DNA from: Planctomycetota bacterium
GTDB taxonomy: Bacteria; Planctomycetota; MHYJ01; JACPRB01
Direction of reading: 5' to 3'
Length of the DNA: 64,000 nt
NCBI GenBank assembly: GCA_041482015.1
Contig: JBGPCZ010000004.1
Span: forward strand, 13,027-77,026
Part shown: piece after piece, positions 12,797 through 26,317 of the stretch
Layout: each line of letters starts with the position of its first letter
Position numbering within the stretch: the first letter of the stretch is position 1
Translations under genes and position numbers: made by a program
Notes under the pieces: model-generated
What the model was told of the DNA's origin: nothing
The model's database searches: none
Seen by the model: only the letters and a program-made list of their open reading frames with translations

Positions 12797-13236
12797 AGCA
12801 CGGTCTCATCCATCCGACGATCAACGAGATCCTCGGCCGCGCGGGCCACCACGGCAAGGTCCTGATCGCGGACGGCAACTACCCGGCGTCGTCGACGCTC
12901 GGGCCGAACGCCCAGCTCGTCGCCCTCAACCTCTCGCCGGGCGTCGTGACCTGCACGCAGGTGCTGGAAGCGCTCGTCACCGCGATCCCGATCGAGGCGG
13001 CAAACACGATGATGTACGAAAAGACGGGCCCCTACGGGCTCAAGGCCGACCCGCCCGTCTGGGCGCAGTACCGGTCGGTCTTCAAGAAGGCGAAGCTCCC
13101 GCTCAAGCTCCAGCCGATCGAGAAGTGGGAGTTCTACAAGGCGGTCGCGACGCCCGACCACGTCCTGACCATCCTGACGGCGGACCAGCAACGATTCGCG
13201 AATCTGCTTCTGACGATCGGAGTGAGGATGTCATGA
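12790..13236 (+). CDS. RbsD/FucU family mutarotase (L-fucose mutarotase / D-ribose pyranase)
   Basis: MLKHGLIHPTINEILGRAGHHGKVLIADGNYP is the family N-terminal signature. Start overlaps the upstream gene by 7 nt. Confidence 0.8.
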   Translation: MLKHGLIHPTINEILGRAGHHGKVLIADGNYPASSTLGPNAQLVALNLSPGVVTCTQVLEALVTAIPIEAANTMMYEKTGPYGLKADPPVWAQYRSVFKKAKLPLKLQPIEKWEFYKAVATPDHVLTILTADQQRFANLLLTIGVRMS

Positions 13237-14207
13237 AGACTCGTACGCTGGGAAAGACGGGGCTTCAGCTGCCGATCCTGTCGTTCGGCGCCTCCTCGCT
13301 CGGCGCAGAGTTCCGCGGGATCGACATCCAGGAGGCGATGAAGGCGGTCCGCGTCGCGCTCGACTGCGGGATGAACTTCATCGACACGTCGCCCTTCTAC
13401 GGGCGCGGCATGTCGGAGGTGCTGCTCGGCGTCGCGCTCCAGGACGTCCCGCGCGAGAAGTACCTCCTGTGCTCCAAGCTCGGGCGCTACGACGCCGCCC
13501 ACTTCGACTTCTCCGCGAAGCGGGTCGTCGAGAGCGTCGACGTCTCGCTCAAAAGGATGCGCGTCGATCACCTGGACATCTGCCTCTGCCACGACCTCGA
13601 GTTCGTCGACATGAGCCAGATCGTGGAGGAGACGCTCCCCGCGCTCCGGAAGATCCAGCAGCAGGGGAAGGTCCGGTTCGTCGGCGTCTCGGGCTACCCC
13701 ATGAAGATGTTCCGCTACGTCCTCGAGCGCGCGCCGATCGACGTCCTCCTCTCGTACAACCACTACACGCTCCAGAACACGATGCTCGAGGGGCTGATCC
13801 CGCTCGCGAAGTCCAAGGGGACGGGCGTGATGAACGCGGCCCCCTTCTCGGCGCGGCTGCTGTCGAACGCGCCGCTCCCCGCGTGGCACAAGGCGACCCC
13901 CGAGGTTCGCGAGACGGCGCGGATGGCGGCCGGGCACGCGGCGAAGCGAGGGAGCGACCTCGCCAAGCTCGCTGTCCAGTTCTCGATCCGGAACCCCGAG
14001 ATCGCGACCTGCATTGCGGGTTCGGCCAGCCCCGAGCGCGTCGCGCAGTGGGCGAGGTGGGTCGAGGAGCCGGTCGACGAACCTCTGATGAAGGAAGTCC
14101 AGGCGATCCTCGCGCCGATCCACAACTGGTTCTATGTCGAGGGGCGGCCGGAGAATAATGACGACCCCAACGATCGACGCTCACCAGCACTTCTGGCAGC
14201 GCGGTAG
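13233..14207 (+). CDS. Aldo/keto reductase (aldose 1-dehydrogenase-like, candidate L-fucose dehydrogenase)
   Basis: LGKTGLQLPILSFGASSLG, FIDTSPFYGRG and HDLEF AKR motifs. ATGA overlap with the upstream gene. Confidence 0.8.
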   Translation: MKTRTLGKTGLQLPILSFGASSLGAEFRGIDIQEAMKAVRVALDCGMNFIDTSPFYGRGMSEVLLGVALQDVPREKYLLCSKLGRYDAAHFDFSAKRVVESVDVSLKRMRVDHLDICLCHDLEFVDMSQIVEETLPALRKIQQQGKVRFVGVSGYPMKMFRYVLERAPIDVLLSYNHYTLQNTMLEGLIPLAKSKGTGVMNAAPFSARLLSNAPLPAWHKATPEVRETARMAAGHAAKRGSDLAKLAVQFSIRNPEIATCIAGSASPERVAQWARWVEEPVDEPLMKEVQAILAPIHNWFYVEGRPENNDDPNDRRSPALLAAR

Positions 14208-15003
14208 GTTCAAGGACGGCTGGCTCGACCGGCCGGAACATCGGCCGATCTCCGGCAGCTTCCTGCCCGCGGACCTCGCGCCGCTCCTCCGGAAGACCGG
14301 AGTCCAGAAGACCGTGTTCGTCCAGACCCAGCACGACGTCGAGGAAAACCGCTGGGTGCTCGGGCTGGCGAAGCAGCACGATTGGATCGCGGGCGTCGTC
14401 GGCTGGGTTGACCTGGCCAGCCCGCGCTGCGAGGAGCAGCTCCTCGAGTTCAAAGGGCAGCCGAAGTTCGTCGGCGTCCGCCACATCACGCAGGACGAGC
14501 CCGACGACGACTTCACCGTCCGGCCGGCGGTGCTCGCGGGGCTCAGGGTCCTCGAGAAGCGCGGCGTCCCCTTTGACCTGCTGTTCTACGTCAGGCACCT
14601 GAAGCACGCGGCGACGCTGGCCGCGAAGTTCCCGAACCTGAAGATGGTGATCGATCACCTCGCGAAGCCGCGGATCAAGGATCACTCGATGGACGTCTGG
14701 AAGGATGCGTTTGTCGCGGCGTCGAAATTCCCGAACGTCTTCTGCAAGCTCTCCGGCATGGTGACCGAGGCCGACTGGAAGGCGTGGACCGTCGCGGACC
14801 TCAAGCCCTACGTCCAGCTCGCGCTCGAACGTTTCGGCCCCGACCGCCTGATGTTCGGCAGCGACTGGCCGGTCTGCGTGCTCGCGGCCCCTTATGAGCA
14901 CGTCTTCGCGGCGCTCCACGAGGCCCTCGGCCCGGTCAGCGACACCGAACGCGAGAAAATCTTCGGCGGGACAGCATCGCGGTTCTACGGCCTTCAAATG
15001 TGA
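14158..15003 (+). CDS. Amidohydrolase_2 family lactonase (L-fucono-1,5-lactonase-like)
   Basis: IDAHQHFW N-terminal metal motif, DHLAKP, and FGSDWPV near the C-terminus. Start at ATG 14158 after GGAG. Overlaps the AKR 3' end by 50 nt. Confidence 0.75.
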   Translation: MTTPTIDAHQHFWQRGRFKDGWLDRPEHRPISGSFLPADLAPLLRKTGVQKTVFVQTQHDVEENRWVLGLAKQHDWIAGVVGWVDLASPRCEEQLLEFKGQPKFVGVRHITQDEPDDDFTVRPAVLAGLRVLEKRGVPFDLLFYVRHLKHAATLAAKFPNLKMVIDHLAKPRIKDHSMDVWKDAFVAASKFPNVFCKLSGMVTEADWKAWTVADLKPYVQLALERFGPDRLMFGSDWPVCVLAAPYEHVFAALHEALGPVSDTEREKIFGGTASRFYGLQM

Positions 15004-15046
15004 ACCAAGTGTTAAGTGACGAATCCGATCTGTAACTTAACAGTTG
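15004..15046. repeat. AT-rich palindromic element, copy 1
   Basis: CCAAGTGTTAAGTGAC-GAATCCGATCT-GTAACTTAACAGTTG directly after the TGA at 15001. 38 of 45 nt identical, in the same register, to 23201..23245. Confidence 0.7.
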
Positions 15047-15064
15047 AGGTAGAATCCGGGGACT

Positions 15065-16126
15065 ATGAAGCCATTTAGAGTCGTCGTCGCGGGGCTGGTC
15101 CATGACCACGCGTGGGGGCTCCTTCCCCAGTTCGCCAAGGTCCCCGGGGTCGAGATCGTGGGCGGCGCGGATCCGAACCCGCCCCTGCTCGAGAAGCTCA
15201 AGAAGGAGTTGGGCGTCACCGCCCTCTTTGAGCGGCCCCGCGACCTCTTCGCGCGCGTGAAAGCCGACGCCGTCCTCGTCTGCGCTTCGAACTCGGGAAG
15301 CGTCCCGATCGCCGAAGCCGCCGCCGCGCGCGGGCTTCACGTGCTGGTGGAGAAGCCGATGGCCGCGACCGCGGAGGGCGCACGGCGAATGCTCCGAGCC
15401 TCAAAGAAGCACGGCACGCGCCTCATGGTCAACTGGCCGATCGCGTGGAACCCCGCGATCGTCCGCGCGATGGAGCTCGTCGAGAGCGGCGACATCGGCC
15501 AGGTCTTCCACGCGCGAATCCACATGGCGCACCAGGGGCCGAAGGAGGCCGGCTGCTCCCCCTACTTCTGGAAGTGGCTCTACGATCCGAAACAGAACGG
15601 GGCGGGCGCGATCGTCGACTACGCCTGCTACGGCGCGGCCGTCATGGCCGCCCTCTGGGGACGGCCCCGCGAGGTCGTCGGCGTCGCGCGCACGCTCGTC
15701 AAGCCGCGCTTCCCGGTCGACGACAACGCGATGATCGTCGCCCTTTGGCCGGAACGAACGGTGCTGTCGCAGGCGTCGTGGACCCAGAACCCCGACTTCC
15801 ACGAGGCGCTCTTCCTCGGCGTGAAGGGCACGCTCGAGACCGCCCGCGGAAAGCTGATCCGCACCCACACGCGCGCCGAGGACTTCTCCCATTGGGGCGC
15901 GAACCGGATGAATCCAGAGGACGTCCCGCTCCCCGCGCTCCCCGCCGGGCGGCGGAATGGACCCGAGCATTTCGTCCACTCGATCCGCTCGGGCCGCCCG
16001 TTCACGAAGCTCTGCCGCGCCGAGACCGGGCTCCTCGCGCAAGAGATCCTCTCCGCCGGGATCCGGTCGGAGCGCTCGGGGCGGCGGATCACTCTCGGGA
16101 GCGGCCGGAGTCCCGGCACTTCTTGA
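15065..16126 (+). CDS. Gfo/Idh/MocA family oxidoreductase
   Basis: N-terminal Rossmann VVVAGLVHDHAW and the EKPMA motif (HVLVEKPMAAT). 3' end overlaps the convergent sulfatase by 38 nt. Confidence 0.8.
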   Translation: MKPFRVVVAGLVHDHAWGLLPQFAKVPGVEIVGGADPNPPLLEKLKKELGVTALFERPRDLFARVKADAVLVCASNSGSVPIAEAAAARGLHVLVEKPMAATAEGARRMLRASKKHGTRLMVNWPIAWNPAIVRAMELVESGDIGQVFHARIHMAHQGPKEAGCSPYFWKWLYDPKQNGAGAIVDYACYGAAVMAALWGRPREVVGVARTLVKPRFPVDDNAMIVALWPERTVLSQASWTQNPDFHEALFLGVKGTLETARGKLIRTHTRAEDFSHWGANRMNPEDVPLPALPAGRRNGPEHFVHSIRSGRPFTKLCRAETGLLAQEILSAGIRSERSGRRITLGSGRSPGTS

Positions 16127-17516
16127 GAAGCGCCGCGAGGCGCTGGACGACGTCGGGCTTCTCGGCGTAGAGATTCTTCGTCTCGCCCGGGTCGTCCACA
16201 AGATTGTAGAGCTGGCCCGCGGGATCGCCCGGCGCGACCTTCACGTTCGTGAACCCGCCGCTCCCCTGCCCCTCGACCAGCTTCCACGGACCCTCGCGGA
16301 TGGCGAACATCCCCGCCGAGGAATGGTGGATCGTGTACGGCCGCGCAAACATCCTTTCTCCTTTGAAGAGAGGTCCGAGATCGAAGCTGTCCTCGCCCGA
16401 GTCGGCCGGCATCTTCGCTCCCGCCGCCGACGCGCACGTCGCGAAGAGATCGGCGAGGCACGCCGTCGCGTCGCACGTCGAGCCCGGCGCCACGCGGCCC
16501 GGCCAGCGGACGGCGAACGGGACGCGGTGACCGCCCTCGTGGATATCCGCCTTCTGGCCGCGCCACGGTCCGTTCGACCGGTGGCCCCACTTCTCGATGT
16601 CGGAGACCGGCCAGTGCGAGCCGTTGTCGCTCGTCAGGACGACCAGCGTCTCCTTCGCAAGCCCCGCGCGCTCCAGGGCCCCGAGCACGCGGCCGACCAG
16701 GACGTCGACCTGCACGACGAAGTCCCCGTACGCGCCCGCCTTTGATTTCCCGCCGTGCTCGTCGACCGGCAGCCACGGCGTATGCGGCCCCGTCAGCGCG
16801 AGGTAGAGAAAGAACGGAGCCGCGCGATCCTTTCCCTGGCGCTCGAGGTACGCGACGGCTTCGCGCTCGATCCGCGGGAGGACGTCGAGGTGCTTGAAGC
16901 CCGGGGCGATCGGCCCCGCGCGCCAGAAGCCGCTCCCGCCTTCGCGCTGGTGCTTCCCCGCCTCGACGCGATCCGTCGGCTGGACCTCGACCGCGCGGTC
17001 CTTCACCCAGACGTAGGGCTCCATGTCGAGCGAGGCCGGGATGCCGGAGAATTCGTCGAAGCCCGCGGAGATCGGCCCGGGGTCGAGCGGCTTTGCGTAG
17101 TCCGTCTTCGCCGCGCTCCCCAGTCCCAGGTGCCACTTCCCGATCCCGGCCGTGCGGTAGCCGCGCTGCTTGAGGACCGACGGGATCGTCGGCCGGCCGT
17201 CCTCGAAGAGGTACGGGCTGTAGCCCTGGAGGACGCCCTTCTTTAGCTTCCCGCGCCACGCGTAGCGGCCCGCGAGGAGCGCGTAGCGCGTGGGCGTGCA
17301 GACCGACGAGGGCGTGTGGACGTCGGCGAACCGCATGCCCTCCGCCGCGAAGGCGTCCATCGCGGGCGTGGGGATCTTCGAGTCGCGGTTGTAGGCGCCG
17401 GGATCGCCGATGCCCAGATCGTCGGCCAGGATGACGAGGATGTTGGGAAGGTCGCGGCGCGGCCCCGGCGCGCCCCCCAGGAGCACCGCCGCGACGATCG
17501 CCAGGGTTGCCCTCAT
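16089..17516 (-). CDS. Arylsulfatase (formylglycine-dependent sulfatase family), secreted
   Basis: NILVILADDLG and the C-x-P-x-R sulfatase signature SSVCTPTRYALLAGR. Signal peptide MRATLAIVAAVLLGG. Start at 17516 preceded by GGGAGGA. Confidence 0.85.
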   Translation of the reverse strand: MRATLAIVAAVLLGGAPGPRRDLPNILVILADDLGIGDPGAYNRDSKIPTPAMDAFAAEGMRFADVHTPSSVCTPTRYALLAGRYAWRGKLKKGVLQGYSPYLFEDGRPTIPSVLKQRGYRTAGIGKWHLGLGSAAKTDYAKPLDPGPISAGFDEFSGIPASLDMEPYVWVKDRAVEVQPTDRVEAGKHQREGGSGFWRAGPIAPGFKHLDVLPRIEREAVAYLERQGKDRAAPFFLYLALTGPHTPWLPVDEHGGKSKAGAYGDFVVQVDVLVGRVLGALERAGLAKETLVVLTSDNGSHWPVSDIEKWGHRSNGPWRGQKADIHEGGHRVPFAVRWPGRVAPGSTCDATACLADLFATCASAAGAKMPADSGEDSFDLGPLFKGERMFARPYTIHHSSAGMFAIREGPWKLVEGQGSGGFTNVKVAPGDPAGQLYNLVDDPGETKNLYAEKPDVVQRLAALLKKCRDSGRSRE

Positions 17517-17647
17517 GATCGTTCCTCCCATCCTTGAACGGGCCGCCGGCCGGGGAGGTTTCGGTCCGCAATTTGACACTCCGGGCCGCGTTGGATTGTT
17601 GAATTCCTGTAGGAATTGGGTTGGGGGTTTTCTTGCTGGAGGATGGA

Positions 17648-18025
17648 ATGAAGAAGGCATGGATTGCGCTCGTGTCGGTGATCGTGGTGGGCTCGATCGG
17701 CCTGGCGGCGGTGACCGCCCGGAGGGTCGACGCGCTCAATGACAAGTGCCCGGTCAGCGGCAAGGCCATCGACAAGTCGAAGACCAGCGAGGTCAAGGTC
17801 GCCTTCTGCTGCAACAACTGCAAGGGCAAGTTCGACAAGGATCCGTCGGCGTGCCTGGGCAAGGTCGACAAGCTGCCGAACGAGAAGTGCCCGGTGAGCG
17901 GCAAGGCCCTGGGCGACGCCTCCTCGACGGTGACCGTGGCGTTCTGCTGCGGCGACTGCAAGGAGAAGTTCGACAAGAAGCCGACCGAGTACCTCGGCAA
18001 GGTGAAGGCGGCGGAGAAGAAGTAA
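17648..18025 (+). CDS. Membrane-anchored protein with two tandem YHS/TRASH-like metal-binding repeats
   Basis: Internal repeat N[DE]KCPVSGKA...V[AT]FCC..CK.KFDK.P...LGKV occurs twice, resembling the YHS domain (DPVCGM...YFCS..C...F). N-terminal TM helix. GGAGGA before ATG 17648. Confidence 0.6.
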   Translation: MKKAWIALVSVIVVGSIGLAAVTARRVDALNDKCPVSGKAIDKSKTSEVKVAFCCNNCKGKFDKDPSACLGKVDKLPNEKCPVSGKALGDASSTVTVAFCCGDCKEKFDKKPTEYLGKVKAAEKK

Positions 18026-18045
18026 CCCCCTGGATTCGAACGAAA

Positions 18046-18080
18046 GCCCCCTCCGGTTCCCCGGAGGGGGCTTTTCTTTT
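18046..18080 (+). terminator. Rho-independent terminator
   Basis: Perfect 11-bp GC stem GCCCCCTCCGG-TTCC-CCGGAGGGGGC followed by TTTTCTTTT, 20 nt after the stop at 18025. Confidence 0.85.
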
Positions 18081-18092
18081 CAACTCTTCTCA

Positions 18093-19136
18093 ATGATGAC
18101 AAGCCTGCTGCTCGCGATCGCGATTCTCGGCGCCGCCCAGGAGAAGGCGGATCCGCTCCCCGTTCGCGGGTTGCACGTGGGCGCCCCGGCGAAGAAGGAC
18201 GTCGACGCCTTTGCCGCGTTCGTCCGCGACGCGCTGGCGAAGGAGGGCGTGAACACGCTCATCGTGGAATTCGATTTCTCCTTCAACTTCACCTCACGCC
18301 CCGAGTTCGCGAACCCGGGCGCGCCGGGAAGGGACGACGTGGCGAAGCTCGCAAAGGCGTGCCGCGAGTCGGGGATCGCGCTCATCCCACAGATCAACTG
18401 CCTCGGACACCAATCGTGGGCAAAGCGGAATGGCGCATTCCTCTCGAAGCACCCGGAGTTCGACGAGACTCCCGGGAAGTTCCCGGAAAACAAGGACATC
18501 TATTGCCGCAGTTACTGCCCGCTCCATCCGCAAATACACGAGGTTCTCTTCCCGCTCGTCGACGAGCTTGCCGCGGCCTGCGAGGCAAAGGCGTTTCACG
18601 TCGGGATGGACGAGGTCTTCATCGTCGCCGACAAGGACTGTCCGCGCTGCGGCGGGAAGGACGCGGCGGAGGTCTTCGCGGGCGAGGTGACGTTCCTTCG
18701 CGATCATTTGAAACAAACGGGCCTCCGGATGTGGATGTGGGGCGACCGCCTCATCGACGGGAAGGCGACGGGGATCGGGAAGTGGGAGGCGAGCGAGAAC
18801 GGGACGGCGGCGGCGGTCGACAAGGTGCCGAAGGACATCGTGATCTGCGACTGGCACTACGAGAAGGCGCACGAGACGCCGCGCTTCTTCGCGGAGAAGG
18901 GCTTCGACGTCGTGGCGTGCCCGTGGCGGAAGGAGCCGGTGGCGCTCGGCCAGCTCGCGCACATGCGGTCGCTCAAGGGGACGGGCCACGCGCTCGGCGT
19001 CGTCCAGACCACGTGGTCCGGATTTGCGCCGTTCCGCGACGACTATGCCGCGGACGACCCGAAAGCGACGGGGAACCCGGCCGAGGCCACGCGTTGTTTC
19101 CGGGCGCTCTTCAAGGCGCTGCGCGAGGGGAGGTGA
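18093..19136 (+). CDS. Glycoside hydrolase family 20-like (beta-N-acetylhexosaminidase-type TIM barrel), secreted
   Basis: Signal peptide, GLHVG, NCLGHQ, and the catalytic-type motif HVGMDEV (H-x-G-x-D-E). Confidence 0.55.
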   Translation: MMTSLLLAIAILGAAQEKADPLPVRGLHVGAPAKKDVDAFAAFVRDALAKEGVNTLIVEFDFSFNFTSRPEFANPGAPGRDDVAKLAKACRESGIALIPQINCLGHQSWAKRNGAFLSKHPEFDETPGKFPENKDIYCRSYCPLHPQIHEVLFPLVDELAAACEAKAFHVGMDEVFIVADKDCPRCGGKDAAEVFAGEVTFLRDHLKQTGLRMWMWGDRLIDGKATGIGKWEASENGTAAAVDKVPKDIVICDWHYEKAHETPRFFAEKGFDVVACPWRKEPVALGQLAHMRSLKGTGHALGVVQTTWSGFAPFRDDYAADDPKATGNPAEATRCFRALFKALREGR

Positions 19137-19383
19137 CAGTCAACGCCGGACGGGCCGGAAGGGGGGCGTCGCGGGGAACGCGGCACCGGCGCGCGCGTGG
19201 AGCCAGCGGAGGGCCCACATCCGGTGGCTGCACGGGAGCGCGACCTTCACGGTCTTCGCCGGATGGTCCGGGGCGCGACGCCAGTCTTTCTTCATGGGGA
19301 TCGGAGAATCATGGGACCCGCGGGGTTACGCGGATAGCCCTGGCTCCAACCCTTCAACGCGTCGGGGCGGGCGTGGATTCCCT

Positions 19384-19995
19384 TCAATCCGCCGCGACGT
19401 AGTCCTTCCAGAGGGTGTCGAGGTCCTTCCCCGTCCACTCCTTGAAGAGGTCGTCCGCGTACTTCCCGCCGCGCATCGCGGCGTTCAGCTTCTTCACGAT
19501 CTCCTTGTCGTGCTTCTCGACGAGCCACGCGAAGAACGACGCCGTCGTCCGGTAGCTGTCCTTGTAGCTCCCCTTCCGCTTCTCCTTCGGGGTAATCGCC
19601 TTCTTCTCGTATTGGAAGTAGCGGATGTAGTCGGCGATCCCGTCGGTCACCCAGCCGGGGCCGCCGTTCTTGTAGCCCTGCACCACGTGGACGAGCTCGT
19701 GGATCACCATCCCCGTGTCCTCGGGATGCTTCTTCACCCAGTCGGCCGCGATGCGGATCTTCGCGCCCGACGTCGCCGCCACGCCCTTCTTGTCCTTCTC
19801 GAAGATGAGCGAGGCCTCGCGGGGCGGCGTGAAGCCGGGCGTCGCGAGGTACTCCGACATCTTCGGATACCACTCCTCGCAGAGCGCCTTCGCCTTGTCG
19901 GCCCATTCCTGGAGCTCCGGCACCTGCGAGACGTCGACCTCGATCTTCACCTTGTCCTGCGGGACGAGGAGGAACGCCAGCAGCAACGGCTTCAT
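19384..19995 (-). CDS. Basic secretory protein-like zinc peptidase (peptidase of plants and bacteria family)
   Basis: HExxH motif (VIHELVHVVQ) followed by WVTDGIADYIRY. Start overlaps the tdh stop. Confidence 0.65.
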   Translation of the reverse strand: MKPLLLAFLLVPQDKVKIEVDVSQVPELQEWADKAKALCEEWYPKMSEYLATPGFTPPREASLIFEKDKKGVAATSGAKIRIAADWVKKHPEDTGMVIHELVHVVQGYKNGGPGWVTDGIADYIRYFQYEKKAITPKEKRKGSYKDSYRTTASFFAWLVEKHDKEIVKKLNAAMRGGKYADDLFKEWTGKDLDTLWKDYVAAD

Positions 19996-21041
19996 GAGAG
20001 CGACTCCGAAGGGAACATCACGATCTTACCGCAGACGTGGTCCGGGGACGTCAGCGTTTCGAACGCCTCCTCGAAGCGCGAAAGCCCGTACCGGTGCGTG
20101 ACGACGCGCGCGGGGTCGAGCCGGCCGCTTTCGAGCAGCCGCTCCATCGTGCGCCACGTCTCGAACATGTGGCGGCCGACGATCCCCAGGATCCGCCGGC
20201 CCTTCATGATGATCTCGTTCGCGAGGTCGATCTCGGCCGGCTGCTTCGGGAGGCCGAACGCGACGAACGTGCCGCCCTTCCGGAGCGAGCGGATCGCGTG
20301 GGTGATCGCCGCCGGGCTGCCCGACATGTCGAACGCGACGTCGAGCCCGTGGCCGCCCGCCGCCACCGCCAGCCGCGCCGCGACGTCCGGGTCCGCCCCT
20401 TCGAAGAGCTCGTCCGCGCCGAGCCGGCCGGCCATCGCAAGTCGCGTCCGGTTGACGTCGACCGCGTAGACACTCGACGCGCCCATCGCCTTCGCGGCCG
20501 CGACGGTGAAGAGCCCCGTCGGCCCGCAGCCGAAGACCGCCACGGCCTTGTTCTCCACGCCCGCCTCGCTCACCGCGTGGACGGCGTTCCCCATCGGCTC
20601 GAGGACCGTCGCCACCTCGGCCGTCGTCCCCGGCAGGTTCTTCCACGCGCAGATCGCGGGGATCGCGACGTACTCCGCGAACGCCCCCGGCCGGTGGACG
20701 CCCAGGATCTCGAGGTTGTCGCAGATGTGCATGAGGTCGTGCTCGCACTGGTAGCAACGGCCGCACGGGACGTGGCTCTCGACCGAGACGCCGTCGCCGG
20801 CGCGGAACCCTCGGACGTTCCGCCCGGCCTCCACGACCTCGCCCGCGAGCTCGTGGCCGAAGACGAGCGGCGGCCGGACCGTCCGCTCCGCCCACGCGTT
20901 CCACGAGTAGATGTGGAGGTCGGTGCCGCAGATGGACGCGGCCCGCACCTTGAGGAGCAGGTCGTCCGGCCCGCAGCGGGGCAGGTCCACGTCCCGGAGC
21001 GCGGCGCCGCGCGCCGCCGAGGTCTTCATGAGCGCTCTCAT
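19992..21041 (-). CDS. tdh: L-threonine 3-dehydrogenase
   Basis: Collinear with E. coli Tdh as recalled: ICGTDLHIY.WN.W, GHE, CG.C..C, FGCGPTG, GR.MFETW. Confidence 0.8.
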   Translation of the reverse strand: MRALMKTSAARGAALRDVDLPRCGPDDLLLKVRAASICGTDLHIYSWNAWAERTVRPPLVFGHELAGEVVEAGRNVRGFRAGDGVSVESHVPCGRCYQCEHDLMHICDNLEILGVHRPGAFAEYVAIPAICAWKNLPGTTAEVATVLEPMGNAVHAVSEAGVENKAVAVFGCGPTGLFTVAAAKAMGASSVYAVDVNRTRLAMAGRLGADELFEGADPDVAARLAVAAGGHGLDVAFDMSGSPAAITHAIRSLRKGGTFVAFGLPKQPAEIDLANEIIMKGRRILGIVGRHMFETWRTMERLLESGRLDPARVVTHRYGLSRFEEAFETLTSPDHVCGKIVMFPSESLS

Positions 21042-21044
21042 CCG

Positions 21045-22526
21045 TCAGTTCCCCTTGAAGGCCGCCCTTACCCGCTCCGCGTCCGCGCCGGGGAGCCGCC
21101 GCAGGAGCTCCTCGCCCGCCGGCTCCTCCCCGCACGCCAGGTGGTAGAAGGCCGCAAGCGCCATGGCGCCCGGGTCCTCTTTTTTCGCCAGGGCGGCGGC
21201 GAGGTCGCGCCGGTCCCCGAGCTTGAAGTTCGCCCAGAGATAGTCGATCGTGCTTCCGTTGGACTCCAGCTTCATTGCGCCCGCCTCGTCGAGCGACGCG
21301 ATCGCCGCAAGCTGATCGATCAGCTTGAAGTGGAACCGCGCGGGATGTCCCTCGTGGATCTCCTTCCGGACGCGCTCCGCGAGAAGCTCGTCCCACGCGG
21401 CGAGCGCCTTCGGGTCGGCCGCCTTCGCGCGGGGTTTCTCGCCGGTCGCCAGCGCCGGCGCGGCGGGCTTCGGCTCCTCCGCCGGGACGGCCTTCTTCCT
21501 GGGCGGCGGGCGGAACGCGCCGGGCTTCTGCATCATGATGATGCAGGCGAAGACGGCGGTCGAGGCAACGTCGTCCTCGCCGCGGAGCGGCACGACGCCC
21601 TCGGCGGTCTGCGTCTTGATGAGGCGGTCGAGGTGCTCGGCCGTGAACTTCGCATAGACGTCGGGCCCCAGGCGGTGCATCGCCGCGGCCACGCTGAAGT
21701 AGTGGAGCGGCGCGAAGCCGTGGACACCGTCCTCGATCTTCTTGTACCGCTGCTCGATCCCCTTTTCGTACTTCGGAAAGAGCGGATGGCTGGTCTGGCC
21801 GGTCGCGAGGAGCGCCATGAGGACCCACGACGCGCGGGCCATCGCGGCATCGCCCACGCCGTTGTCGGTGCCGTAGCGGACGCCCATGCCGTCGGAGAGC
21901 GTCTCGAGGTTCTTCTGGGCCTTCTCCATCATGGGCCCGATCCTGATCCCGAGGGACTTGAGCTCAAGGAAGGCGCCGTAGATCATCGTGGTGACCATCC
22001 CGAGGTCCTGGCCGCCGCCCTTCTTGTTGTAGTTGTCCTCCTTCCACATCCGGAGGTGGTGGCACCAGCCGCCCGTCTCCTCCTGCTGCTTCTCGGCCAT
22101 CTTGAGCCCTTCCGCGAGCGCCTTTTCGACCTCGGGGGTCAGGCCGTACTTCGTCGCGTATTCCGCGAGGAAGATCATGGACATCGAGAGGTACCAGTTG
22201 CGGTTGAAGCCCTCGTCCTTGATCGCCTGGCAGCAGTACTTGACGCACTCCTCGAGCTCCTTCGGGCTCTCGCCGTCCATCATGAAGGCGAAGCCGCCCA
22301 TCATGTAGCCGCCCATCTTGGAGCCGATGACCCGCTTGGCCTTGTCGCTCCGAAGGTTGGCCTTCAGGTAGGCCATCGCCTTGGCGAGGGCCGGGGCGCA
22401 GATCTTGCACTTGCGCCAATCCGGATTGTGGGCTTCCTGCGCCGCCCGGGATTCCCGGGGGATACTGCCGACCGTCACCGTCGCGGCGAGAACCGCCGCG
22501 CACGCCATCCCGCTCCACCTGGACAC
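21045..22526 (-). CDS. Secreted hypothetical protein, possibly prenyltransferase/squalene-oxidase-like alpha/alpha toroid plus a C-terminal helical domain
   Basis: 493-aa ORF with normal composition. GTG start at 22526 preceded by AGGAGG. Signal peptide. GGW.HH-type repeats. The product name is tentative. Confidence 0.6.
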   Translation of the reverse strand: MSRWSGMACAAVLAATVTVGSIPRESRAAQEAHNPDWRKCKICAPALAKAMAYLKANLRSDKAKRVIGSKMGGYMMGGFAFMMDGESPKELEECVKYCCQAIKDEGFNRNWYLSMSMIFLAEYATKYGLTPEVEKALAEGLKMAEKQQEETGGWCHHLRMWKEDNYNKKGGGQDLGMVTTMIYGAFLELKSLGIRIGPMMEKAQKNLETLSDGMGVRYGTDNGVGDAAMARASWVLMALLATGQTSHPLFPKYEKGIEQRYKKIEDGVHGFAPLHYFSVAAAMHRLGPDVYAKFTAEHLDRLIKTQTAEGVVPLRGEDDVASTAVFACIIMMQKPGAFRPPPRKKAVPAEEPKPAAPALATGEKPRAKAADPKALAAWDELLAERVRKEIHEGHPARFHFKLIDQLAAIASLDEAGAMKLESNGSTIDYLWANFKLGDRRDLAAALAKKEDPGAMALAAFYHLACGEEPAGEELLRRLPGADAERVRAAFKGN

Positions 22527-22588
22527 GCGATCCTCCTTTCACAGGGACGCCCGCGTCGTATCCTGTACGAGGCGGACGGTCCGCTGTT

Positions 22589-22597
22589 TGATATAAT
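22589..22597 (+). promoter_or_regulatory. Extended -10 promoter element for the XRE/cupin gene
   Basis: TGATATAAT (TG-n-TATAAT) 28 nt upstream of ATG 22625, in an AT-rich patch of the divergent spacer. Confidence 0.4.
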
Positions 22598-22624
22598 GGA
22601 CGTCATCCAGTATAGAGGACACCG

Positions 22625-23203
22625 ATGAAGCGCCGGAACGTACAGTCGAAGGCCAACCCGTTCTGCGAGCAGGTGCGGAAGCTGCGGGCGCAGAAGGGCT
22701 GGTCGCTCGAGCAGCTGGCCGCCGCCTCGGGGGTGAGCCGCTCGATGCTCTCGCAGATCGAGCGGGACCGGGTGAACCCGACGGTCGCGGTGGCGCAGCG
22801 GATCGCGGCGGCGTTCGAGGTCTCGCTCGGGAGCCTGGTAGACGGCCCGAACTACGCGCCGGCGATCGACGTGATCCGCGCGTCCGACCGCGCCACCCAC
22901 TTCCGGTCGCAGAGCGACTGCGAGATCCGGACGCTCTCGCCGCTCCACCTCGAGAAGGAGGTGGAGTTCTACGAGCTCCGGTTCCGCCCGGGCGTGTCTC
23001 TCCGGAGCGCCCCCCACTTCGCCGGGACGCGGGAGATCCTGACGGTGGTCCAGGGCTCGCTGCGCGTGACGTCGGGGAAGGACGTGAGCGACCTCGGCCC
23101 GGGCGACTCGGCCCACTACCGGGCCGACGTCCCGCACGCGATCGAGAACAGGGGCCGCGGCGTGGCGATCGCGTTCCTCGTCGACCTCTACGGCGGGCGG
23201 TGA
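22625..23203 (+). CDS. XRE-family HTH transcriptional regulator with C-terminal cupin domain
   Basis: HTH_3 motif LRAQKGWSLEQLAAASGVSRSMLSQIERDRVNPT. Cupin beta-barrel with the GDSAHY..DVPH motif. Confidence 0.85.
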   Translation: MKRRNVQSKANPFCEQVRKLRAQKGWSLEQLAAASGVSRSMLSQIERDRVNPTVAVAQRIAAAFEVSLGSLVDGPNYAPAIDVIRASDRATHFRSQSDCEIRTLSPLHLEKEVEFYELRFRPGVSLRSAPHFAGTREILTVVQGSLRVTSGKDVSDLGPGDSAHYRADVPHAIENRGRGVAIAFLVDLYGGR

Positions 23204-23248
23204 CCCAACTGTTAAGTGAGACATCCGATCTCTCACTTAACAGTTTGG
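23204..23248. repeat. AT-rich palindromic element, copy 2
   Basis: CCCAACTGTTAAGTGAGA-CATCCGATC-TCTCACTTAACAGTTTGG directly after the TGA at 23201. 15-bp perfect stem. The loop ATCCGATCT is shared with copy 1. Confidence 0.75.
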
Positions 23249-23306
23249 ACGGTTATGGGTGCGCGAGCACTAGGACGCCAGCCCCCACGGCACCGTCCAA
23301 TAACCT

Positions 23307-23777
23307 ATGGACTGGCTACCACGCGCGTTCGCCCTGCTCCTCGTCGTCACCTTGGGCATCCTTGCCGTCGATGTATTTTGGACCACCATCACCTTCGAGA
23401 AGGAGTGCTTACGATGCACTTGGAAAGAGGCTCACCCCGGCAAATCCTTTCCAGGTTGCGGAGGCAGGGGATTCAGCTTCAATCGCCTTTGTCCCACTTG
23501 CGGGGAAAAATGGGGAGATAAGGAGCTGAGCTGGAGCTGGTTGCCGTGGGACGACACCCGGCGCCTCCTGCGAATCTTCCTCCTGGCGGCCGCGCCCGCG
23601 TTTCTGAGCGCCGCCCGCATTGCCCGTTGCCCGAACTGCAGCGGTCAGCCCTACCTGCGACCCCTGAGGGAGGCCCTTCCATCGGCTCCCTGCCGCCGGT
23701 GCGGGGGCCGCGGTCGCGTCACCCTCCTGAACCAGTGGTTCGTCCTGCGCCGCTCCAAGGCGACGGCCCGATCCTGA
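23307..23777 (+). CDS. Hypothetical membrane protein with several CxxC zinc-ribbon-like motifs
   Basis: N-terminal TM helix. CLRC, CPTC, CPNC and CRRCGGRG (DnaJ-type CxxCxGxG). Codon usage clearly less GC3-biased than the flanking genes. Confidence 0.5.
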   Translation: MDWLPRAFALLLVVTLGILAVDVFWTTITFEKECLRCTWKEAHPGKSFPGCGGRGFSFNRLCPTCGEKWGDKELSWSWLPWDDTRRLLRIFLLAAAPAFLSAARIARCPNCSGQPYLRPLREALPSAPCRRCGGRGRVTLLNQWFVLRRSKATARS

Positions 23778-23837
23778 ACGTCGCGGTCTCTTCCATTATG
23801 GTCGTAGCATTGCGGCCGGCCTGATGTATTAGAAGGC

Positions 23838-26317
23838 ATGCGGGCCTTGCTTCTCTTCCTATCCCTCGCGGGCGCCGCGCCGACGCAGGAGCAGCCGGCG
23901 AAGATAGACTTCGACCGCCAGGTCCGCCCCATCCTCTCGGACAACTGCTATCACTGCCACGGGCCCGACGGGAAGCAGCGCAAAGCCGACCTGCGGCTTG
24001 ACACGAAAGAGGGCGCGTTCGGCAAACTGGGCGACGTCTTCCCCTTCGTCCCCGGCAAGCCCGGCGAGAGCGAGGCGATCAGGCGCATCACGTCCAAAGA
24101 CCACGACGAGATGATGCCGCCGCCGAAGTCGAACCGGAAACTCACGCCGCTGCAGATCGCAACCCTCAAACGGTGGGTCGAGGAGGGCGCCCCATGGAAA
24201 GGCCACTGGGCGTTCACCGCTCCCGAGCGGCCCGTGCTTCCGAAGATCAGGAACGCGAGGAATCCGGTCGACGCCTTCATCCTCGCACGACTGGAACAGG
24301 AAGGCCTCGCGCCCTCCCCCGGGGCCGACAAGGTCACGCTCCTCCGGCGCGTCTCGCTCGACCTGACCGGCCTGCCGCCCACGCCCGCCGAGGTCGACGC
24401 GTTCCTCGCCGACGCCGCGCCCGACGCCTACGAAAAGCAGGTCGACCGCCTTTTGAATTCGCCCCGCTACGGCGAGCACCTCGCCTGGCCGTGGCTCTCG
24501 GCCGCGCGCTACTCCGACACGAACGGCTACCAGGGGGACGGGACGCGGACGATGTGGCCGTGGCGCGACTGGGTGATCGACGCATTCAATCGCAACATGC
24601 CCTTCGACCAGTTCACCCTCGAGCAGCTCGCGGGCGACCTCCTCCCGAACCCCACGGTGCCGCAGAGGGTCGCCACCGGCTTCAACCGGAACCACATGCT
24701 CAACGGCGAGGGCGGCCGGATCGCCGAGGAGTCGCGCGTCGACTACGTGGCCGATCGCGTGGAGACGACCGGCACCGTCTGGCTCGGGCTCACGATCGGC
24801 TGCGCCCGCTGCCACGACCACAAGTACGACCCGTTCACCCAGAAGGAGTTCTACCAGCTCTTCGCGTTCTACAACAACCTGCCCGAATCGGGCGGCGTCG
24901 ACAAGCGGTCGAGCGCGAACCCCGTGATGGAATTGCCCACGGCCGACCAGGCGGAAAAGATCGCGGCGCAGAAGCAGAAGCTCGCCGAGGTCGAGGCCCG
25001 GTCGAAAGATCACGAGCAGAAGCTGCGGGCCGAGCAGCCGAAGTGGGAGGAGGAGGCGGCGAAGACCGCCGACAAGCTCCCCAAGAACATCGCCGAGATC
25101 CTCAAGACCGCCGAGACCCAGCGCGACGAGAAGAAGGCGCGGGAGCTGACCGACTACTACCTCGGCCTCGACGCCGGGCGGAAGAAGCTCATCGACGAGC
25201 AGGACAAGGCGAAGAAGGCGGTCAAGGCGGCCGAGGACGCGGTCACGCTCGTCATGGTGATGGAGGAGCGGCCCAAGCCGCGCGAGACGTTCCTCCTCGT
25301 CCGCGGCGCGTATGACAAGTTCGGCGACAAGGTCACGGCGAACGTCCCGGCGAGCCTCCCCCCGCTCCCCAAGGACGCGCCCCCCAACCGGCTGGCGCTC
25401 GCCCGCTGGATCGTCGATCCCGCGAACCCGCTCACCGCGCGCGTGACGGTCAACCGCTTCTGGCAGCAGTTCTTCGGCGCGGGGATCGTCCGGACGATCG
25501 AGGACTTCGGCACGCAGGGCCAGCGGCCGACCCACCCCGAGCTTCTCGACTGGCTGGCCACCGAGTTCATCCGCACGGGCTGGGACGTGAAGGCCCTGGT
25601 GAAGCTGCTGGTGACGAGCGCGACGTATCGCCAAACCTCGAAGGTCACGCCCGGGCTCCTCGAGAAGGATCCCGAAAACCGGCTCCTCGCTCGCGCCCCG
25701 CGGTACCGCCTCTCGTCGGCCGCGATCCGCGACCAGGCGCTCTCCGCGGCGGGCCTGCTCGTCGAGAAGGTCGGCGGCCCGGGCGTGAAGACCTACCAGC
25801 CCGCCGGGATCTGGGAGGAGATGACGTTCAACATCATCCGGTTCCAGCAGGACAAGGGCGAGGCGCTCTGGCGGCGCAGCCTCTACGTCTTCTGGCGCCG
25901 CACGGTCGGCCCGGCCAACCTGTTCGACTCGATGCCGCGCCAGGTCTGCACGGTCCGTGCGTCGCGCACCAACACGCCGCTCCACGCGCTCACGCTGCTG
26001 AACGACGTGACCTACGTCGAGGCGGCCCGCGCGCTCGGCCAGCGGATGATGAAGGAGGGCGGCGGGACCCCGAAGGAGCGGATCACCCTCGCCTTCCGTC
26101 TCGCGGCCGCGCGGACGCCGACGGACCGGGAGCTCGAGATCCTCGCGCGGCGCTACGACGCGCTCCTCGAGCGGTATTCAAAGGACAAGGAGGCGGCGCT
26201 CAAACTGCTCAAGGCGGGCGAGTCGAAACGCGACGAGTCGCTCGATCCCGTCCAGCACGCGGCCTGCGCGGCGATCGCGAGCGTCATCCTTAACCTCGAC
26301 GAAGTGATCACCAAGGA

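Follow-up and report, generated by a model that had tools for sequence, protein, structure and literature searches.

A dispersed REP-type hairpin family and its probable Y1 transposase partner in an uncultured planctomycete

Background

In a planctomycete draft genome of high GC content, two genes of one contig are each followed, directly from the stop codon, by nearly the same AT-rich palindrome, and the question raised by this locus is what such a hairpin is and what put it there. The genome (G000) is a 5.78-Mb draft in 243 contigs with a GC content of 67.6%, and the window, the whole stretch of DNA that was analysed, is the 64,000 nt at positions 13027-77026 of its contig C4. A first-pass annotation, made from the letters of the window, had reported the palindrome as a 45-nt element present twice. 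It judged the element to be a selected hairpin rather than an ordinary intrinsic terminator, named a REP/MITE-like element first among the options (a protein-binding site and an RNA-processing signal being the others), and proposed a genome-wide scan for further copies together with a search for a partner gene resembling RAYT/TnpA or XRE proteins.

Results

Two hairpins that begin at stop codons

The first element (15003..15049, no strand assigned; C4:28030-28075, nhmmer E 5.5e-14) has its centre, a C, at 15026 and a core palindrome at 15006-15046. It follows an amidohydrolase (PF04909) gene on the + strand (14158..15003; ORF 14134/14158-15003) whose TGA, at 15001-15003, lies 2 nt before the CAAGTG foot of the element. 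Because the ortholog in a sister species of the same genus (G004, a MAG labelled "uncultured Planctomycetales bacterium") ends at the same final codon (...FYGLKV* against ...FYGLQM*), this stop codon is native, with the repeat sitting just after it. A GFO/IDH/MocA oxidoreductase gene (15065..16126, + strand) starts 18 nt past the core, and is not adjacent to the amidohydrolase gene in the sister species. The second element (23203..23249, no strand assigned; C4:36229-36275, nhmmer E 3.1e-13; centre C at 23226, core palindrome at 23206-23246) follows a gene for an XRE-type HTH plus cupin regulator (22625..23203, + strand), whose TGA at 23201-23203 is 2 nt before a CAACTG foot.

The sequences quoted for the two elements in the first-pass annotation are exact, as is their start at the two stop codons, and a hand count of 7 differences in 45 positions agrees with the identity of 38/45 given there. 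The compensatory change described at 20:32, and the mismatch at 9:43 of copy 1 that becomes a pair in copy 2, are likewise real, both sets of positions being symmetric about C26. A T-run is absent from both copies, in keeping with the reported lack of a U-tract, and the striking AT-richness extends to the family described below, whose consensus has about 41% GC (hand count) against 67.6% for the genome. What has to be given up is the "loop core" ATCCGATCT, which is stem rather than loop in the master copies, since the consensus is palindromic down to a single central base.

No chance matches to the pattern shared by the two elements are expected (0, from 100 shuffles of the window). A scan for a consensus terminator and promoter at copy 1 gave no match. 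An Rfam search of window positions 14000-24500, with E up to 1, found no match at either hairpin, its sole output being a weak, unrelated sar match at 18039-18074.

The DNA between the two copies differs from that of the sister species. A contig of G004 is collinear with window positions 13083-14994 (86% identity) and 23803-25708 (81%), and between the collinear blocks (window 14995-23802) there are 8.8 kb here against 3.2 kb of unrelated DNA in G004. Copy 1 sits exactly at the left synteny break and copy 2 about 550 bp inside the right one, so that the repeats bracket a variable gene block. The sister species offer no clean empty site for either window copy, the flanking genes being non-adjacent there. 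In the roughly 590 bp past copy 2 (window 23250-23837) the sole ORF, of 156 aa (23307-23777), has no Pfam match, which may mean non-coding DNA or an orphan gene; the next confident gene, for a PSCyt1/PSCyt2/PSD1 planctomycete protein, starts at 23838.

A family of fifty near-identical palindromes

The report of a repeated hairpin stands insofar as both copies are real, and falls short in treating them as a pair. An nhmmer profile, built from 48 copies found by a loose pattern search and run over the genome, identifies 50 copies on 38 contigs (E 1.8e-16 to 1.4e-7); a backwards-read control pattern has 0 matches in G000. Copy numbers are to be read as lower bounds, because the MAG is 87.5% complete (with 7% contamination) and one copy lies at a contig end.

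Members of this family (family 1) are near-identical palindromes of 41-47 bp with the consensus cCAACTGTTAAGTGACAGATC[C/G]GATCTGTCACTTAACAGTTGg, and agree with the description of REPs as short (20-50 bp), dispersed, imperfect palindromes. As single-stranded DNA, a master copy reaches -23.6 kcal/mol (z = -11.8), with 22 bp in its stem and 3 nt in its loop. Window copies 1 and 2, both mosaics of arm variants, are weaker, at -9.0 and -14.6 kcal/mol, with mismatched upper stems: copy 1 is a mosaic variant, with a left arm of the GACGAATC type, a right arm of the GATCTGTAAC type and 3-4 mismatches, and copy 2 keeps an intact outer stem (15 pairs) beneath a variant upper stem (GAGACATC / GATCTCTC). 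Two arm types dominate the family, ...GACAGATC and ...GACGAATC/GAGGAATC, and many copies mix both. Some stem positions are near-independent between the arms within G000 (pair 17, and the many mosaic copies), so strict pairing is not imposed on every copy.

The consensus is symmetric to both ends (cCAACTG...CAGTTGg) and has no conserved one-sided tetranucleotide; lacking a one-sided GTAG or CGTC tag, the family falls outside the GTAG and CGTC super-families of REPs. There is no orientation bias of the central base among copies just downstream of + strand genes, where it is C in about 8 and G in 12 (hand count). Most loci (38 of 44) are singlets. Five doublets, with copies 78-79 bp apart, have a common 37-nt spacer and so resemble REPINs, and a sixth pair is 47 bp apart.

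Copies concentrate on stop codons

Gene positions came from a simple codon-usage caller made for the analysis, which is crude (5072 genes, 93% coding). Relative to these calls, 49 of the 50 copies lie outside confident genes, and 32 of 42 scorable loci adjoin a gene 3' end, which is the extragenic distribution, mostly at gene 3' ends, that is expected of REPs. The 42 loci occupy 15 convergent, 17 tandem and 10 divergent gaps, against 5.1, 23.8 and 13.0 expected if insertion into non-coding DNA were uniform. The core element overlaps a stop codon, or comes within 5 nt of one, at 25 of the 42 loci; in 5000 simulations the average is 2.3 and no run exceeds 9. Within tandem gaps the element is close to the upstream stop codon rather than to the downstream start. 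The genome-wide scan thus bears out the preference of the first-pass annotation for a REP/MITE-like selected hairpin over an ordinary terminator, with 50 copies and a strong positional bias to stop codons.

A few registers account for this proximity. Eight gene ends (and one more, at the copy cut by a contig end) use a TGA inside the element at -14, and three use an in-element stop at -10. TAA or TGA is fused to the first bases of the foot at 11 gene ends, and a native stop stands 1-5 nt upstream at 12, including both window copies. For six genes whose stop lies inside the element, comparison with orthologs places the end of the conserved protein core just before the element, and the G000 proteins carry an element-encoded tail, TVK*, SVK* or NC*. 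The element therefore entered at the native stop or within a few codons of it. Overwriting of the gene end, in place of insertion, was considered: protein length is kept at one locus, but the tails differ from those of orthologs at five, and since these five tails differ in length, insertion at or near the stop codon fits better. That REPs occur near stop codons, and that REP ends can supply stops, has been described before (PMC3733652, and PMC12306157 where it cites its ref. 17).

Two observations concern single loci. The gene ending at G000:C1:77508 has a family-1 copy, its ortholog in G004 (L117) has an unrelated long palindrome, GGGCGGTCGGGATGCCGGGTTATCACGTGATAACCCGGCATCCCGACCGCCC, and its ortholog in another genome of the genus, G006 (L119), has yet another, ACACCATAAATC...GATTTATGGTGT; at both L117 and L119 the palindrome follows the stop codon immediately, so that different families of hairpins seem to make repeated use of gene ends. 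At G000:C27:28542-28582 an ORF of 811 aa contains a family-1 copy in frame, translated as ...PQLLSDRSDPSLNSS... in the one frame that is free of stops, with a dip in GC3 from about 0.95 to 0.63. Here a REP has been inserted within a gene and adds about 14 residues.

A Y1 transposase gene between two copies

A Pfam search of the genome for Y1_Tnp yields three matches, the best of them at C129:2450-2779. It falls in a gene (C129:2396-3259; GTG start, TGA stop) for a 287-aa HUH/Tyr transposase, P0002, with the motifs MPNHFHL (NHFH) and SRYIHANP (YIHANP). The gene is flanked by two family-1 copies in inverted orientation, one centred at C129:2276 (centre G), about 100 nt upstream of the GTG, and the other at C129:3282 (centre C), with its foot 2 nt past the TGA in a TGA-AC-CAACTG register as at window copy 1. 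A single-copy Y1 gene between inverted repeat copies is the arrangement of a REPtron, and it supplies the RAYT/TnpA-like partner that the first-pass annotation had proposed to look for.

P0002 matches Pfam PF01797 (Y1_Tnp) with E 4.4e-9. Its only, and hence best, NCBIfam match is REP_Tyr_transpos (NF047646) at 47.7 bits, below the 80-bit cut-off, so we regard it as a relative of canonical RAYTs and not as an equivalog. H66-F-H68 and Y125-IHANP are invariant in an alignment of 36 homologs, as expected of the HUH and Tyr motifs of a RAYT. A search of PDB chains with the P0002 sequence gave no significant match, for which reason a fold search was needed. The AlphaFold model (36 homologs; pLDDT 87.5) has 4ER8_A as its top Foldseek match in the PDB (E 1.3e-5; TM 0.67 normalised to the target; 160 columns), followed by the ISDra2, IS200 and IS608 transposases. 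4ER8 is E. coli TnpA_REP (RAYT, YafM) bound to a REP hairpin, and P0002 is accordingly predicted to have a TnpA_REP-like fold. In the model a helical C-terminal tail spans residues 198-286. Scanned against Pfam by itself, the tail matches no family; a profile of it has a weak match in the PDB to a sigma-factor region-4 HTH (E 0.018), and one P0002 homolog carries PF08299.

Related enzymes have their own hairpins

The closest ortholog of P0002 among species-representative genomes is that of G004 (59-61% identity), where the locus is syntenic on both sides. That gene too is flanked by palindromes, CAACTGTTCATCTGGGCATC[C/G]GATGTCCAGATGAACAGTTG, of which G004 has at least 34 copies; the foot and apex are those of family 1, and the stem is different yet complementary. 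A homolog in G006 (L095) is flanked by AAGTGTTAACGTTCGAATC.GATTCGGACGTTAACACTT (at least 11 copies), and a second homolog in G006 and one in G007 are each flanked by palindromes of their own.

G000 itself encodes a RAYT-like paralog (G000:C54:26498-27501; 49% identity to P0002), flanked by a second, GC-rich family, CTGATAAGCGGAGTGCG[C/G]CGCACTCCGCTTATCAG. This family 2 has at least 59 copies at 37 loci, 22 of them doublets, and its association with stop codons is closer still: the element is no more than 5 nt away from a stop at 31 of 33 loci, and at 25 of the 33 its own TGA serves as the stop codon. The feet of the families are alike (CTGTTAAG, CTGATAAG, CTGTTAAC). A third Y1_Tnp gene (G000:C37:2642-3100; L003), 36% identical to P0002, is flanked by AAAAACTGCCTCGCAGTTTTT-type hairpins, which may be a third small family or part of an IS200-like element.

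A generic pattern, AACTGTT-N9-ATCSGAT-N9-AACAGTT with up to 2 mismatches, was run across the genomes of the order. It has 47 matches in G000, 34 in G004 and 11 in G006, and none in the other 17 genomes of the order; a backwards control has zero matches. The three pattern-bearing genomes are exactly those members of the genus that encode a P0002 homolog of at least 40% identity. G001, G002 and G003 have full-length homologs of no more than 33% identity (G001 also has a short partial match at 40%), and none is present in G005. G007, which belongs to another genus, has one at 46% identity.

Across the three species the stems covary. In 57 distinct copies, 90.4% of stem cells are paired, compared with 74.4% in shuffles (none of 500 attains 90.4%) and with no more than 41% in controls with slid partners, and 11 of 18 stem pairs change on both sides. 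The foot (AA[C/G]TGTT...) and the apex (ATC[C/G]GAT) are conserved from species to species, and the mid-stem varies with its complementarity kept.

Discussion

What the enzyme and its repeats resemble

The motifs listed for TnpA_Y1 subclass 2.1 (Table 1 of Quentin et al. 2018, PMC6006769), a subclass that corresponds to Bertels Group 1, are found in P0002: NHFH, F104-Q105 and W142-S-S144 are present, and YIHANP is the one deviation, from Y[IV]HLNP. Together with the long helical tail predicted at the C-terminus they fit subclass 2.1, or TIRYT, an assignment founded on motifs and not on a tree. Previous surveys describe no REP-like sequences near subclass 2.1 genes (PMC6006769), and only about 12 occurrences of the 16-mers that flank Group 1 genes (Bertels et al. 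2017). A GGGGWSAS motif marks the inverted repeats on either side of TIRYT genes (Di Nocera et al. 2013, PMC3733652); some TIR families are self-complementary, dimeric and moderately abundant, as at S. maltophilia ORF1152, and the planctomycete R. baltica has many Y1 genes with flanking repeats (PMC3733652). We scanned 85 loci encoding relatives of P0002 and found flanking inverted repeats of at least 18 nt in 61, by eye mostly non-hairpin repeats with GGGG[AT]C[AG]-type motifs. The flanks of P0002 are full palindromes without the GGGGWSAS motif.

Comparison with known systems places the partnership among them without making it identical to any. With E. coli REP/BIME elements and TnpA_REP it shares dispersed extragenic palindromes, copies that adjoin stop codons, a single-copy HUH/Y1 gene bracketed by copies, and a predicted protein fold for which 4ER8 is the best match. 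Unlike the E. coli REP, family 1 has neither an unpaired GTAG tag nor a bulge, and its AT-rich palindrome is greater in length (41-47 bp) and nearly perfect in its symmetry; unlike E. coli TnpA_REP, P0002 has 287 aa with a helical C-terminal tail, scores below the NCBIfam RAYT cut-off and belongs to a planctomycete. The REPIN-RAYT systems of Pseudomonas (Bertels & Rainey; PMC3116915, bioRxiv 10.1101/119735) likewise combine singlets with doublets whose spacer is conserved, and have many variants around a few abundant master sequences, an enzyme gene that is syntenic between species, and several RAYT paralogs each with a family of its own. However, copy number is lower here (about 50-60 per family), family-1 doublets are a minority, and the motifs of P0002 fit Bertels Group 1, not the REPIN-associated Groups 2 and 3.

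Resemblance to TIRYTs and TIRtrons (PMC3733652; mostly subclass 2.1, PMC6006769) lies in the NH[YF]H, FQ, Y[IV]HxNP and SS motifs, in the HTH-like C-terminal tail, and in the GGGGWSAS-type inverted repeats that flank distant relatives of P0002, whereas the flanks here are complete hairpins without GGGGWSAS and belong to REP-like populations of 50-60 copies. The IS200/IS605 elements (IS608, ISDra2) have the HUH/Y1 core in common with P0002; they recognise hairpins in ssDNA, as P0002 probably would, and make no target duplication, of which none was noticed by eye here either. They differ in being autonomous insertion sequences of many copies, whose hairpins are small and subterminal and whose target is a defined tetra- or pentanucleotide; in G000 there is one copy of the gene, and dispersal is confined to the hairpins.

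On balance the system is filed as REP/RAYT-type, a known kind of system in an uncultured planctomycete host. Against that reading count the subclass 2.1 motifs, the NCBIfam score below cut-off, the missing unpaired tag, the near-perfect symmetry, the non-palindromic repeats beside most distant relatives and the looser pairing at some stem positions within G000.

Origin of the hairpins

The hairpins are very probably a species-specific REP family, generated and maintained by the RAYT-type HUH/Y1 single-strand transposase that is encoded between two of its copies (a "REPtron"). The reading most worth weighing against it, which we think unlikely, makes them host-selected RNA elements at mRNA 3' ends (Rho-independent-like terminators without a U-tract, stabilisers or processing sites) that recombination has spread, with the Y1 gene incidental. 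The extreme bias to stop codons and convergent gene ends would suit such elements, as would the unrelated hairpins found at the same gene end in other species and the effects on translation and mRNA decay that PMC12306157, at the point where it cites its ref. 17, attributes to E. coli REPs near stops. Independent selection would not, however, yield some 50 near-identical 41-bp sequences; ten loci fall in divergent gaps, on the promoter side of genes, and one copy is read in frame within a gene; and five Y1 genes, from four genomes, were examined and each has a palindrome family of its own on both sides. A role for the host is in any case compatible with a RAYT origin, and is hence no alternative to it.

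Protein binding fares worse. A perfect dyad, the XRE-HTH/cupin gene that ends at copy 2 and the presence of some copies in divergent intergenic regions could all suggest the operator of a dimeric transcription factor, for example that XRE-cupin protein, and thus a regulon. Most copies, however, are downstream of genes and not upstream, and the stems vary with compensating changes both within and between species, a poor fit to a sequence-specific operator, which would conserve sequence and not pairing. The doublets with their conserved spacer and the flanking of a transposase gene would also go without explanation. We consider an operator highly improbable, and the XRE partner envisaged in the first-pass annotation is probably a coincidence, even though the gene ending at copy 2 does encode such a protein, because 48 other copies are elsewhere and the stems covary. 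There is equally little to recommend a MITE derived from a DDE-type insertion sequence, with collapsed terminal inverted repeats mobilised in trans: the element is indeed short, palindromic, dispersed and species-specific, but no direct target-site duplications were noticed by eye beside the listed copies, and the only gene found bracketed by copies in the Pfam Y1_Tnp search is the Y1 HUH transposase.

How the family might spread

For the REP family and P0002, a course of events can be proposed by analogy with E. coli TnpA_REP and with IS608/ISDra2. The palindrome would fold as a hairpin in single-stranded DNA, for instance on the lagging-strand template, and P0002 would recognise its foot and apex and cut beside the foot, using Tyr125 and a metal site formed by His66-x-His68. 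We infer that P0002 mobilises the repeats, and it would do so by copying or moving the hairpin, or a doublet of two hairpins with the 37-nt spacer, to new sites, of which only those at gene 3' ends would persist or be targeted. An inserted hairpin would then be transcribed at the end of the upstream mRNA, where, judging from E. coli REPs that lie no more than 15 nt from a stop, it may stabilise the 3' end, serve as a terminator or slow translation termination.

A broader proposal, possible but on present evidence doubtful, is that TIRYT/subclass 2.1 (Group 1) enzymes run vertically inherited REP/REPIN populations in this planctomycete genus, in which the enzyme fixes the foot and apex and the stems drift by compensatory change, with integration aimed at stop codons. 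The idea of aimed integration arises because stop codons are where two families of one genome have most of their loci (25 of 42 in family 1, 31 of 33 in family 2), the TGA itself coming from the family-2 element in 25 cases.

Conclusions

An odd AT-rich hairpin is explained as part of a genome-wide repeat system and is tied to a probable enzyme. Such a system is of an ordinary kind, and two of its features are of modest interest, the branch of the enzyme and the strength of the association with stop codons in two families. It extends REP/RAYT-type partnerships to an uncultured lineage of Planctomycetota, and the enzyme branch involved is one not usually credited with REP populations. Anyone who annotates such MAGs should be aware of the repeats, since they mark the ends of genes, can contribute stop codons, interrupt short-read assemblies and coincide with breaks in synteny. 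Three sister species and two paralogs, each with a cognate hairpin, amount to a natural experiment on the positions that the enzyme reads, and if integration is aimed at stop codons, these families would offer a concrete way into the question of how REPs select their sites.
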